From an uncultured Acidobacteriota bacterium (GTDB taxonomy: Bacteria; Acidobacteriota; Vicinamibacteria; Vicinamibacterales; UBA2999): DNA of 64,000 nt. This document shows positions 7,088-58,267 of the stretch, piece after piece. The stretch's first letter is position 1. Each line of letters starts with the position of its first letter. The stretch lies in NCBI GenBank assembly GCA_963814395.1, contig CAWFCS010000004.1, positions 20,862 through 84,861 on the forward strand, given 5' to 3'. The position numbers and the translations under genes were made by a program. The notes under the pieces are model-generated. The model was not told the origin of the DNA, searched no databases, and worked only from the letters and a program-made list of their open reading frames with translations.

Positions 7088-7264
7088 GGGGGACTGGGGG
7101 CTGGAGGCTAGGGGCTGGGGTGGGTCTCAAGAAAGACGAAGGGCCGGAAGCAAATGCTCCCGGCCCTTCGTTGTGAGTGTCGAACCTGGGTGTCACACCG
7201 TCACCGTGGCGTGCCTTGGTCCCCAGTCCCGAGTCCCTAGTCCCGCCGCGCCCTAAGGCGCGGC
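7088..7264. repeat. composite palindromic intergenic element: G-rich heptamer array, conserved hairpin, C-rich heptamer array, small hairpin
   Basis: 7088-7124 reads GGGGACT GGGGGCT GGAGGCT AGGGGCT GGGGTGG. 7136-7171 is a 12-bp perfect stem (ACGAAGGGCCGG/CCGGCCCTTCGT). 7218-7244 is the complement of GGGACTA GGGACTC GGGACTG GGGACC. 7245-7264 is GCCGCGCC-ctaa-GGCGCGGC. The core matches the element at 58116-58267. Confidence 0.8.
7125..7171 (-). terminator. rho-independent terminator downstream of pnp
   Basis: A 12-bp GC-rich perfect stem at 7136-7147 / 7160-7171. On the minus strand it is followed by CTTTCTT (complement of 7125-7135). Confidence 0.6.
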
Positions 7265-7267
7265 TGA

Positions 7268-9466
7268 CTAGTCGCGCCGGGGGCCCCGATCGCGGCGCGG
7301 GCCGCGGGGACGATCGCCGCCGCCGGCATCGCCGCCGCTCGGAGCGTCCTGCTCGCTGCCCGGCTCGGCCGCCGGCGGACCACCCTCGGAGGGCAGCAGC
7401 GCCTTGCGGCTGAGTCGAATCTTCCCGGTCGGGTCGATGTTGATGACCTTCACGAGAATCTGCTGGCCTTCCTTGAGCTCGTCGCGCACGTCCTTCACGC
7501 GGTGGTTCGCGATTTCGGAGACGTGCAGCAGGCCGTCGGTGCCGGCCATGATCTCGACGAACGCGCCGAAGTCGGTGATGCGCTGCACCTTGCCCAGGTA
7601 GGTCTTGTTCAGTTCGGGCGTGGCGGTCAGCTCTTGAATCATGCCGATCGCCTTGGCCGCCGCGGCTTCGTCCGACGACGCCACGTTGACCTGGCCGTTG
7701 TCCTCGACGTCGATCTTCACGCCGGTCTTCTCGATGATGCTGCGGATCATCTTGCCGCCCGGCCCGATGACGTCGCGGATCTTGTCGACCGGGATCTTGA
7801 TGGTGACGATGCGCGGCGCGTAGGCCGACATGTTGGTGCGGGTCGCCGGCAGGTGTTCCTGCATGATGCCGAGGATGTGCAGGCGGCCGGCCTTGGCCTG
7901 GGTGAGCGCCGCGCGCATCACTTCCGCCGAGATGCCGGTGACCTTGATGTCCATCTGCAGGGCGGTGATGCCGTCCTTGGTGCCGGCGACCTTGAAGTCC
8001 ATGTCGCCGTAGTGGTCTTCGGCGCCGGCGATGTCGCTGAGCACCGCGTACTTGCCGGTGGCCTCGTCCATGATGAGGCCCATGGCGACACCGGCGACCG
8101 GCGCTTTGATCGGCACGCCGGCATCCATCATGGCCAGCGACGCGCCGCACACCGACGCCATCGAGGAGCTGCCGTTCGACTCGAGGATGTCCGAGACGAT
8201 CCGCACGGTGTAGGCGAAGTCGGCTTCGAGCGGCATCATCGGCGCGAGCGCGCGCTCGGCCAGTGCGCCGTGACCGATCTCGCGGCGGCCGGGGCCGCGC
8301 ATCGGCTTGGTTTCGCCGACCGAGAAGGGCGGGAAGTTGTAGTGGAGCATGAAGCGCTTCCACATCTCGCCGTCGACCATCTCGATCTTCTGCTGGTCGT
8401 CGGCCGTGCCGAGCGTGGCGGTGACGAGCGCCTGGGTCTCGCCGCGGGTGAACACGGTCGAGCCGTGCACGCGGGGCAGCACCTTGGTCTCGATGGTGAT
8501 GGGGCGGATCTCGTCGAACTTGCGGCCGTCGAGACGAATGCTGCGGTCGAGGATCTCGGTGCGCAGCACCTGCTCCTGCAAGTCGTGCAGGATGCCCTTG
8601 GCTTCGCCCTTGCGGCTGGCCTGGTCTTCTGGCAGACCCGCGATGGTTTCCTTCTCGACCTTCGCCACCGTGGCGTAGTTCTCGATCTTGCCCTTGATGC
8701 GCATGGCCGCGGTGAGCGGCGCCAGCGCCTTGGCGGCGATCGCCTGCTGGAAGGCGCTGTCGGCCTTCACGGCGGGCTTGGCCAGCTTCGTGCGGCCGGC
8801 GTCCTTCGCCAGGCCGTCGATGAGGGTGCAGATGTCCTTGATGGCGGCGTGCGCCACTTCGAGCGCCTGGATGACCTCCTCTTCGGAGACCTCCTGCGCG
8901 CCTGCTTCGACCATCACGATGCCGTCCTTGCTGCCGGCGACGGTGAGGTCGAGGCGGCTCAGCTTGCGCTCGGGGAAGGTCGGGTTGACGACGTACTTGC
9001 CGTCGATGAGGCCCATGCGCACGCCGGCGATGGTCTTCTCGAGCGGCATCTCCGAGAGCGCGAGCGCCGCCGAGGCGCCGGTGATGGCGAGCACGTCGGA
9101 GTCGTGGTCGGTGTCGGCCGACAGCACGAAGGCGATGACCTGCGTTTCGAAGGCCCAGCCGGCCGGGAAGAGCGGACGAATCGGGCGGTCGATCAGCCGG
9201 CTCGTGAGCGTTTCCTTCTCGGTGGCCTTGCCTTCGCGCTTGAAGAAGCCGCCGGGAATGCGGCCCGAGGCGTAGGTGTATTCACGATAGTCGACCGTGA
9301 GCGGAAGGAAGTCGATGCCCTCGCGGGCGCTGGAGGCGTGGCAGGCGGTGACGATCACCATGGTGTCGCCCATGCGGACGACGACCGCGCCGTCGGCCTG
9401 CTTGGCCAGTCTGCCCGTCTCGATGGAGAGGGTGTGTTGGCCGATCTGAATCTCGCGCTTGATCAT
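7268..9466 (-). CDS. pnp: polyribonucleotide nucleotidyltransferase (PNPase)
   Basis: Two RNase PH domains, then KH and S1 domains (GKVQRITDFGAFVEI). Start taken at MIKREIQIGQHTLSIETG, with GAGG 6 nt upstream. RG-rich C-terminal tail. Confidence 0.96.
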   Translation of the reverse strand: MIKREIQIGQHTLSIETGRLAKQADGAVVVRMGDTMVIVTACHASSAREGIDFLPLTVDYREYTYASGRIPGGFFKREGKATEKETLTSRLIDRPIRPLFPAGWAFETQVIAFVLSADTDHDSDVLAITGASAALALSEMPLEKTIAGVRMGLIDGKYVVNPTFPERKLSRLDLTVAGSKDGIVMVEAGAQEVSEEEVIQALEVAHAAIKDICTLIDGLAKDAGRTKLAKPAVKADSAFQQAIAAKALAPLTAAMRIKGKIENYATVAKVEKETIAGLPEDQASRKGEAKGILHDLQEQVLRTEILDRSIRLDGRKFDEIRPITIETKVLPRVHGSTVFTRGETQALVTATLGTADDQQKIEMVDGEMWKRFMLHYNFPPFSVGETKPMRGPGRREIGHGALAERALAPMMPLEADFAYTVRIVSDILESNGSSSMASVCGASLAMMDAGVPIKAPVAGVAMGLIMDEATGKYAVLSDIAGAEDHYGDMDFKVAGTKDGITALQMDIKVTGISAEVMRAALTQAKAGRLHILGIMQEHLPATRTNMSAYAPRIVTIKIPVDKIRDVIGPGGKMIRSIIEKTGVKIDVEDNGQVNVASSDEAAAAKAIGMIQELTATPELNKTYLGKVQRITDFGAFVEIMAGTDGLLHVSEIANHRVKDVRDELKEGQQILVKVINIDPTGKIRLSRKALLPSEGGPPAAEPGSEQDAPSGGDAGGGDRPRGPRRDRGPRRD

Positions 9467-58080: not shown

Positions 58081-58115
58081 GCGCTGCGCGCCGAGGCGCC
58101 GCATCGACAGGTCTT

Positions 58116-58267
58116 GGGACTGGGGGCTGGGGGCGAGGGCCTGCCAGAAACGGCGAAGGGCCGGGCGATTCGCCCGGCCCTTCGCTTTGTACGGTGTGGC
58201 GGCTGGACTGGTACGTTACTAGCCCCAGCCCCCAGCCCCCAGCCCCCAGTCCCTAGAACCTAGAACC
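58116..58267. repeat. composite palindromic intergenic element: 19-bp perfect inverted heptamer arrays flanking a 15-bp hairpin
   Basis: GGGACTGGGGGCTGGGGGC at 58116-58134 is the exact reverse complement of 58235-58253. The central hairpin is at 58153-58185. The right array extends at 7-nt period through AGTCCCT AGAACCT AGAACCT (to 58267) and contains the receptor gene's TAG stop. Confidence 0.85.
58153..58190. terminator. bidirectional rho-independent terminator between convergent rng and the TonB-dependent receptor gene
   Basis: Perfect 15-bp stem GCGAAGGGCCGGGCG-att-CGCCCGGCCCTTCGC. It is followed by TTTGT on the plus strand and by CGTTTCT on the minus strand. Confidence 0.7.

Follow-up and report, generated by a model that had tools for sequence, protein, structure and literature searches.

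Tandem GGGRCYN heptamer arrays at gene boundaries of a Vicinamibacterales (Acidobacteriota) chromosome and their likely place in a known bacterial repeat class

A stretch of 64,000 nt from an uncultured bacterium of the Vicinamibacterales (Acidobacteriota; contig CAWFCS010000004.1, positions 20,862 to 84,861; ~70% GC throughout; hereafter the window) was analyzed for dispersed tandem arrays of a 7-nt unit. Nine arrays of the general unit GGGRCYN, joined head to tail with a period of 7 at 9/9 sites, were located over 51 kb. Seven of them are non-coding, one lies in the linker of rimO and one in a candidate upstream open reading frame (uORF). Judged by their sequences, the arrays represent a new host phylum for a known heptamer class and not a new system. 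Useful new details are a polarity that recurs across phyla, translated copies and adjacency to leaderless-type -10 boxes. The interpretation we favor, with modest confidence, is that the arrays would be simple sequence repeats (SSRs) born by slippage that persist in orientations compatible with gene expression.

Genes in the window were mapped by codon-position GC and Pfam. An earlier reading of this DNA, made from its letters (the original prediction), had named nine heptamer-array sites, and all nine were recovered in place (7088-7124, 7218-7244, 12362-12386, 18185-18219, 18692-18719, 33492-33531, 51910-51937, 58116-58139 and 58219-58267). Repeats of period 7 were reported by Tandem Repeats Finder at eight of them (7089-7120, 7219-7245, 18193-18216, 18690-18720, 33492-33531, 51913-51931, 58116-58134 and 58223-58253), the exception being the short site 12362-12386. 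Searching with the two-unit pattern GGGRCTRGGGRCTR (≤1 mismatch) returned 20 matches against 0.17 expected, a count reached by 0/100 shuffles, and a motif-free lag-7 scan of the window returned no period-7 array beyond the nine sites. The unit sequences read were GGGACTG, GGGACTA, GGGGCTG and GGGACCR, with GGGACTG located at 18193-18213, 33506-33512, 7090-7096 and 58116-58122. At least four in-register G-tracts were present at 8/9 sites (two at 12362-12386), and exactly four units were counted in 8/10 strict arrays from the window and its relatives, a small sample. The original statement that eight of the nine sites are intergenic needed revision: 18185-18219 is read in frame within the rimO linker and 18692-18719 falls in the uORF, and 51910-51937 is intergenic once a frameshift in the window copy of mreB is recognized.

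The unit is that of a repeat known from cyanobacteria. STRR1, reportedly described by Mazel and colleagues in 1990 as a short tandemly repeated repetitive sequence (STRR) of unit CCCCAGT, is defined in heterocystous cyanobacteria (~40% GC). Its proposed relation to the window unit by permutation and complement was correct, the reverse complement of GGGACTG being, once permuted, CCCCAGT. The window arrays share with STRR1 the tandem heptamer but not the cyanobacterial host, and therefore resemble STRR1 while standing taxonomically outside the cyanobacterial family. To our knowledge, STRR-type heptamer repeats have been without a function since 1990. Cyanobacterial STRR arrays can form hairpins between genes, and STRRs are reported to lie also inside a functional RNase P RNA gene, in a permissive region, which parallels the rimO linker.

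Heptamer SSRs that form G-quadruplexes (G4) were described by Rehm et al. (2015, PLoS One; PMC4692102), with the units GGGAATC in Xanthomonas and GGGGA(C/T)T in Nostoc PCC 7120. Those arrays are dispersed, contain 2-26 units (mode four) and are 68-93% intergenic. Each Xanthomonas genome holds 70-75 convergent plus/minus pairs capable of forming stem-loops, and the G-rich strand lies nearer to its 5' neighboring ORF, in whichever direction that ORF runs (sense copies up to ~50 bp after a stop, antisense copies up to ~50 bp before a start). Both strands were transcribed, and G4 and i-motif were formed in vitro. Related species keep the intergenic slots but differ in array length and sequence; the arrays are associated with housekeeping genes, no function was identified, no association with insertion sequence (IS) elements or transposons was found, and phase variation was argued against. 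The Nostoc unit GGGGACT is a circular form of the same heptamer as GGGACTG and STRR1 CCCCAGT. The window arrays match this class in unit, dispersion, non-coding bias, convergent pairing, polarity and a tendency to about four units. The window differs in its host (Vicinamibacterales, 70% GC) and in its unit GGGRCYN, which includes many CTAG-forming, GGGGCTC and GGGACCR variants. Beyond the features of the published class, window pairs bracket identified terminators, arrays abut leaderless-type -10 boxes and arrays are translated in a linker. G4 formation was measured in vitro for the published arrays, whereas at the window arrays a consensus is read from sequence. No paper reporting this repeat class in Acidobacteria was found in the literature, in agreement with the original prediction, which knew of no description from a high-GC, Acidobacteria-like chromosome; the accompanying description as an uncharacterized repeat system was overstated, since the class has been published together with its strand and G4 regularities.

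Arrays persist nearly always in one polarity, with the G-rich 5' end beside the nearest gene. A scan for three consecutive GGGRCTR units, with one genome per species, returned at least 120 loci. About half of the matches listed were from Nostocales and Oscillatoriales, including Nostoc, Calothrix and Anabaena, and the high-GC remainder of these matches comprised Gemmatimonadota (9 loci), Acidobacteriota (~22), Planctomycetota (7), Xanthomonadales, Geobacterales and others, including Proteobacteria. Among the matches listed, CTAG-forming units ending in A made up 59% in high-GC loci against 29% in cyanobacterial loci, where the G-ending unit prevailed (70% GGGACTG); the pattern admits only R at position 7, so that only the A:G ratio is meaningful in these figures. 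Polarity was scored in listed loci of ≥57% GC using heuristic gene calls based on GC at third codon positions, a pattern-selected sample with several loci from some genomes. In this set the 5' end of the G-rich strand adjoined the nearest gene in 50/59 intergenic arrays (p = 5e-8), 27 of the 50 being sense-G copies behind a stop and 23 sense-C copies before a start, at a median gene distance of 18 nt. Among the matches listed, opposite-strand pairs less than 260 nt apart were arranged G...C in 24/25 cases (p = 1.5e-6). Where a spacer separates co-directional genes, sense-G copies were close to the stop of the first gene and sense-C copies to the start of the second. Within the window, polarity toward the 5' neighbor holds for the arrays starting at 7088, 7218, 18692, 58116 and 58219; for those at 33492 and 51910, in short spacers inside operons, it is ambiguous; the five solitary arrays are, as originally claimed, C-rich on the sense strand.

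Other heptamer SSR families were found to co-occur with GGGRCYN arrays. In an uncultured Acidobacteriota metagenome-assembled genome (MAG; locus L041, 4735-5230), a ~130-nt tandem repeat is present four times, with serial heptamer SSRs of GGGGCTA, GAGAACG, AATGACGAGTGCCG and CAATCNN. An exact (GGGACTG)3 array was seen in each of the IMG/VR viral contigs L001-L004 (GC 51-62%). Across taxa, a perfect stem of ≥8 bp was present on the inner side of 14% of arrays against 6% of random windows; a rule that arrays always flank a hairpin, true of both window pairs, is weakly supported by these values and was rejected as a general one.

One array, and probably two, are translated. The array at 18185-18219 (5 units, plus strand) lies inside rimO (17189-18687), whose sense strand is the minus strand and is C-rich here. 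It is in frame with the radical-SAM domain and is read as protein in the linker that joins this domain to the UPF0004 domain. Disruption of rimO by the array was ruled out, the array being in frame and the frameshifts of the gene, which resemble consensus errors, lying elsewhere. Among 116 relatives the RimO linker measured 35-109 residues. Hexapeptides encoded by arrays were found in the linker of 42/116 of these proteins and elsewhere in the protein in only 3; 37/56 long linkers carried them versus 5/60 short ones. Exact array translations in long linkers included PSPQSPVP (from CCCCAGT), APAPSPQPPAP (from CCCCAGC), PSPEPRAP (from CCCGAGC) and RGSGLGARGSGLG (from the G-strand, GGGGCTC). Translations of the C-strand were found in 36 proteins, of the G-strand in 11 and of both in 5, where G always preceded C. 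In L129, one of the related loci that were compared (handles L125 to L133), the rimO DNA reads (GGGGCTC)4, a PSEAT-coding core and four CCCCAGY units, all in frame. The prevalence of C-strand translations, together with the absence of TAG units from the translated arrays, argues for an orientation filter in coding DNA; common units in ORFs are stop-free in the C-rich sense orientation. In Borg elements (PMC9879509), ORFs tolerate tandem repeats, which give rise to disordered protein segments. The window array is likewise tolerated in an ORF, yielding a Pro/Ser-rich low-complexity linker that varies between relatives. Unlike the Borg-type repeats, it has a 7-nt period that is not a multiple of 3, so that the repeat is read in each of the three phases in turn and 21 nt give a motif of 7 residues. 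A RimO call in L126 (P0053, 497 aa; 10001-11494) was extended spuriously by ~27 N-terminal residues where the gene caller ran through a stop-free C-rich array.

The second candidate is the array at 18692-18719 (4 units, GGGACCR/GGGACTG, plus strand), which is C-rich on the rimO sense strand and ends 4 nt before the rimO GTG (18685-18687). It falls within a candidate leaderless uORF of 29 codons (18684-18773, minus strand), whose TGA overlaps the rimO GTG by 4 nt; TACAGT (18780-18785) stands upstream of its first codon, with 6 nt between them. Corresponding uORFs of 21-29 codons were noted in the window, L125, L127, L128, L129 and L131, and their consensus reads MSRDAARRQSPWSLFPGPWSLL followed by the stop. 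This stop overlapped the rimO start (RTGA) in 6/7 syntenic loci, although the lengths differed by 3, 6 and 21 nt. This conservation is suggestive of a translated, coupled leader peptide that would be encoded in part by the heptamer array. A second heptamer SSR family, GCGGCTA/CCGCTAG, which also bears CTAG, was noted in the window (18732-18765), in L125 (10395-10432 and 21245-21295), in L126 (~16580) and in the rimO linker of L128. In relatives it shares slots with the first (downstream of pnp, upstream of rbfA and in the rimO linker), and many RimO proteins contain its translation, RDPLAASRQPLAA.

Two convergent pairs in the window enclose terminators. The first (pair A) lies between pnp and a cupredoxin gene (6659-7075, minus strand; Pfam Cupredoxin_1), where the minus strand reads pnp stop (7268), small hairpin, G-array, terminator, C-array, TACAAT, 6-nt spacer and cupredoxin ATG (7073-7075). 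The small hairpin (GCCGCGCC-TTAG-GGCGCGGC; 7245-7264, minus strand), also present in L129, separates the stop from the upstream arm (7218-7244, 4 units, minus strand), which is G-rich on the pnp sense strand and lies 23 nt past the stop. The pnp intrinsic terminator (7136-7171, minus strand) consists of a 16-pair stem followed by CTTTCTTGAG. The downstream arm (7088-7124, ~5 units; G-rich on plus, C-rich on the minus sense strand) stands directly upstream of the cupredoxin-gene -10 box, a TACAAT hexamer (7082-7087, minus strand) placed 6 nt before the ATG as in a leaderless-type gene. TACAAT-N6-ATG was also found at the cupredoxin gene of L125. In a predicted read-through RNA, the G and C arms pair around the terminator (-100.8 kcal/mol, z = -6.3).

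The second (pair B) lies between a convergent RNase E/G gene and an outer-membrane beta-barrel (OMP) gene. One arm (58116-58139, ~3.4 units, plus strand) follows the RNase E/G stop (58080) by 36 nt and is G-rich on the sense strand of that gene; the other (58219-58267, 5 GGGRCTG and 2 CCTAGAA units, minus strand) is G-rich on the OMP sense strand. Between them, a terminator hairpin (CGAAGGGCCGGG-CGATT-CGCCCGGCCCTTCG; 58154-58184) has T-rich tails on both strands, so that each convergent mRNA would read stop, G-array and shared bidirectional hairpin. In the predicted read-through RNA the arms again pair around the terminator (-132.2 kcal/mol, z = -9.7). A GC-rich stem-loop, a T-rich tract and a position downstream of a gene were found together at the hairpins between the arms (7136-7171 and 58154-58184); the U-tracts of both terminators are weak and interrupted. 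The two terminators (7139-7168 and 58156-58182), 51 kb apart, have identical 9+9 nt stem arms (AAGGGCCGG/CCGGCCCTT), and the stem of the orthologous pnp terminator of L131 is nearly the same. An Rfam scan of the window returned nothing at or between the arrays, the sole match being a tRNA gene (36925-37008, plus strand).

C-rich arrays are also found directly beside putative promoters. Upstream of rbfA, a vestigial array (12362-12386, plus strand; GGGGCTA, GGGCTGG and then a unit of opposite sense) supplies with its CTAG the TAG of a TAGAAT -10 box (12359-12364), 6 nt before the ATG (12350-12352). In L125, L126, L127 and L131 a C-rich heptamer array lies directly 5' of the corresponding TAGAAT or GATAAT box, and in 5/5 loci with a spacer the slot is filled by a C-rich heptamer array (units CCCGAGC, CCCGGTC, CCCTAGC and CCGCTAG). 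Three start regions are conserved among relatives: that of rbfA reads TAGAAT/GATAAT-N5-7-ATG, that of the cupredoxin gene TACAAT-N6-ATG and that of the uORF before rimO TACAGT-N6-ATG. We infer these to be -10-only arrangements of the leaderless type. A gap of 0-3 nt separates the C-array from the -10 box of rbfA and from that of the cupredoxin gene, so that the array occupies the spacer and -35 region and lies outside the mRNA of the gene itself. A sigma-70 consensus scan of window positions 1-20000 returned no -35/-10 promoters; the -10-only boxes emerged from comparing relatives. Hexamers of the TA(C/G)AAT type, without a Shine-Dalgarno (SD) sequence, were noted 6-8 nt before several starts (7082-7087, 12359-12364, ~23270, ~31290, ~43600 and others), and SD-like motifs at just 9/50 called starts in the window. 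Taken from these start regions, the pattern suggests that leaderless transcription may be common in this Vicinamibacterales lineage. Two further solitary arrays occupy short spacers. That at 33492-33531 (5.7 units, plus strand), C-rich on the sense (minus) strand, takes up the 42 nt that separate a PALP-enzyme gene from the start (33481) of an alpha-glucan phosphorylase-like gene. A degenerate array at 51910-51937 (4 units, GGGATCG, GGGCCCG, GGGCCCA and GGGACC; minus strand) lies, C-rich on the sense strand, in the mreB-mreC spacer, where the true mreB stop is TGA 51903-51905 and the window mreB is frameshifted just upstream.

Sequence consensus was tabulated for G4 and for stop codons. The G3+N1-7 consensus originally ascribed to the arrays was confirmed at 7/9 sites and not at 7088-7124 (one 10-nt loop) or 12362-12386 (two G-tracts). 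The window holds 12 canonical G3+N1-7 motifs, where block shuffles give ~31, and 8/12 were within arrays; G4 potential is concentrated by the arrays in an otherwise depleted sequence. RNA G4 depletion has been reported in bacteria and is consistent with this depletion. For the tetranucleotide CTAG, base composition predicts 178 copies in the window and 28 were counted (~6-fold under-represented); 11/28 copies (39%) fell within the 293 nt of the nine array sites. The frame closure described in the original prediction was exact: 58219-58267 closes 6/6 frames and 33492-33531 closes 4/6. So was the claim that two genes end on array-borne TAGs, the PALP-enzyme gene at 33524-33526 within 33492-33531 and the OMP gene at 58260-58262 within 58219-58267. 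Neither translated window array (18185-18219, 18692-18719) contains CTAG.

Turnover was assessed by comparison with relatives. The closest RimO homologues (83-89% identical) were from Vicinamibacterales, and the order aspS, rimO, rimP, nusA, infB, rbfA, nrnA, truB, rpsO, pnp, cupredoxin is common to the window and the contigs of these homologues. Array density was 7.8/100 kb in the window and 4.3/100 kb in the synteny loci, and no array was found in 80 further metagenome pnp loci (60-89% identical; 343 kb). The slot downstream of pnp holds GGGACTR in the window and L129, (GCGGCTA)5 in L125 and nothing in L131. The pnp terminator hairpin is kept in L131, which is array-free there, and this indicates that arrays were added around an ancestral terminator. 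In the few strains compared, arrays showed no indel, either within the group L131, L132 and L133 (99.5-99.9% identical) or in L129 against L130. The original prediction had proposed to compare copy number among strains. Presence and unit type differ between close relatives. Slots that vary between relatives and are identical between strains indicate a turnover that is fast between species and not hypermutation.

Assembly quality was considered alongside. The window rimO carries about five 1-nt indels relative to L127 and L128 (near 18326, 18262, 18246, 17457 and 17241), none of them in the array. The 3' end of mreB (~51800-51905) is out of frame, the 5' region of infB (14200-15300) seems to have no in-frame N-terminal third, and similar split genes were noted in L126 and L127. 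Frameshifts in mreB, a normally essential gene, lead us to read the scattered 1-nt indels as most likely due to consensus error in long-read assembly.

On the interpretation favored here, the sites would be a lineage-specific set of SSRs. Arrays would arise and be resized in 7-nt steps by replication slippage and would turn over fast at a limited set of gene-boundary slots. G-runs on the mRNA before a start or within an ORF would be harmful, as RNA G4 or as SD-like ribosome traps, so that such places would keep copies only with C-rich sense, and sense-G copies would survive only just behind a stop, where they are untranslated. Both kinds in one spacer would yield a convergent G...C pair around resident signals, in the window the pnp and RNase G/OMP terminators, and the arms of such a pair would anneal over ≥25 bp in a read-through transcript. 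The sequence as it stands lengthens the terminator stem, makes the -35 position of leaderless promoters G-poor, places TAG in several frames and gives a Pro/Ser-rich linker. These cis effects would be tolerated or mildly useful by-products and not the purpose of a dedicated system. This interpretation is supported by the filling of the same slots with different units, other heptamers or nothing, which indicates turnover, and by the co-occurring heptamer SSR families, which point to a general slippage of heptamers. The match to the published class, the arrays added around an ancestral pnp terminator, the polarity, the prevalence of C-strand translations in RimO linkers, the G4 depletion of the window and the unchanged lengths in near-identical strains also favor it. 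Of the accounts considered, it is the simplest to fit turnover, translated copies, other heptamer families and the published class together.

Several observations weigh against this interpretation. At rbfA and the cupredoxin gene the array stands upstream of the -10 box, and a filter acting on mRNA cannot explain its orientation there. The rbfA slot, filled by a C-rich array in every locus with a spacer, suggests maintenance rather than drift. The count of exactly four units in most strict arrays is the G4 minimum and not the monotonic decay of a neutral SSR. CTAG is strongly under-represented in the window, yet more than a third of its copies are in arrays. The exclusion of C-rich sense copies from positions right after stops is not explained by any known cost.

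Operon punctuation, termination and translational insulation, the roles proposed in the original prediction, are conjecture, and a dedicated punctuation function is unproven. We regard such a function as possible but doubtful. Sense-G copies would slow or trap RNA polymerase (through an R-loop or G4) or protect the 3' end, and the hairpin would terminate; sense-C copies would serve as a fail-safe Rho loading site (C-rich, G-poor) or, with the G-arm, as double-stranded RNA cleaved by RNase III. Downstream promoters, often leaderless, would be insulated from read-through, and TAGs in all frames would stop stray ribosomes. Such a role accords with the two window pairs, which bracket bona fide terminators with weak, interrupted U-tracts and whose read-through RNAs fold with paired arms, and with the C-arm of pair A, which abuts the -10 box of a leaderless-type gene. 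The placement of sense-G by upstream stops and sense-C by downstream starts, the constantly filled rbfA slot, the four-tract mode, the concentration of CTAG in arrays and the six closed frames at 58219-58267 fit as well. The orthologous pnp terminator, however, is array-free in L131 and in 80 relatives, evidently terminating without arrays, and inner-side stems are only modestly enriched across taxa (14% vs 6%). Arrays also occur in operon-internal spacers of 42-61 nt (33492, 51910) and in ORFs (rimO and the uORF), where termination would be harmful; at 25-50 nt they are short for a Rho utilization (rut) site, and unit type and presence differ between close relatives.

Extragenic elements of other kinds also form inverted pairs. 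In Proteobacteria, repetitive extragenic palindromes (REPs) and the related bacterial interspersed mosaic elements and REPINs are often found behind genes in inverted pairs. They are able to fold into long hairpins, and they can stabilize upstream mRNA or assist termination. REP units are fixed palindromes of 20-40 nt with conserved sequence, spread by REP-associated tyrosine transposases (RAYTs). A mobile or copied element of this kind, REPIN-like or resembling a miniature inverted-repeat transposable element (MITE), with the arrays as terminal inverted repeats spread by a transposase or RAYT, would account for the convergent architecture seen in many phyla, for the identical 9+9 nt stem AAGGGCCGG/CCGGCCCTT of both window pairs and for the G...C pair even inside the rimO linker. 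Unlike REPs, the window arms are tandem heptamers of variable length around unrelated centers, with no conserved unit evident. Pair centers span 12-178 nt and the shared stem is that of a generic terminator; the pnp hairpin is orthologous and array-free in L131, and so was not imported; arm lengths and unit types differ within a pair, and solitary arrays are common. The rimO pair flanks an ancestral PSEAT-coding segment, and no transposase was evident with the arrays in a search confined to the window. We consider a mobile origin very improbable, and identity with a MITE or REPIN was rejected on the unrelated centers and the ancestral pnp terminator. The published class, too, lacks an IS or transposon association (PMC4692102).

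Equally little credence is given to operators, that is, sites for a DNA- or RNA-binding protein that reads heptads, or to contingency loci acting as hypermutable expression switches (phase variation). In favor, the arrays at rbfA and the cupredoxin gene are promoter-proximal, in the -35 region or spacer, and in Nostoc a regulatory role is suspected for heptamer repeats close to promoters. Against this, the neighbors are housekeeping genes (pnp, rbfA, rimO, mreBC and rng), and orthologous slots differ in unit sequence, which a sequence-specific binder would not tolerate. Near-identical strains show no length variation, and Rehm et al. (2015; PMC4692102) argue against phase variation; a contingency locus was rejected on the unchanged unit numbers of the few strains compared and the housekeeping neighbors. 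That the arrays are artefacts of a long-read MAG assembly, a challenge raised in the original prediction itself, has a negligible probability: consensus quality is imperfect, with 1-nt indels breaking rimO, mreB and probably infB, but these indels lie outside the arrays, independent JGI metagenome assemblies from short reads have analogous arrays in orthologous places, with no difference from sample to sample, and hundreds of genomes carry arrays.

For annotation, the arrays mislead gene callers into N-terminal extensions, and they hold most G4 motifs of an otherwise depleted sequence. In high-GC soil phyla this heptamer recurs under unchanged rules of polarity and pairing. Selfish slippage products may be separated from boundary elements by contrasting slots with and without arrays in close relatives, sense with antisense copies, and translated with untranslated ones. 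A bolder proposal, which we hold to be improbable, is that GGGRCTN arrays are an actively maintained boundary element across Cyanobacteriota, Acidobacteriota, Gemmatimonadota and Planctomycetota. A common trans-factor or structural mechanism (G4/i-motif, or a Rho/RNase III fail-safe) would then set the polarity, the four-tract minimum and the CTAG content, and the G...C bracket would act as an insulator, chiefly for leaderless genes. If that were true, STRR-type repeats would gain a function.

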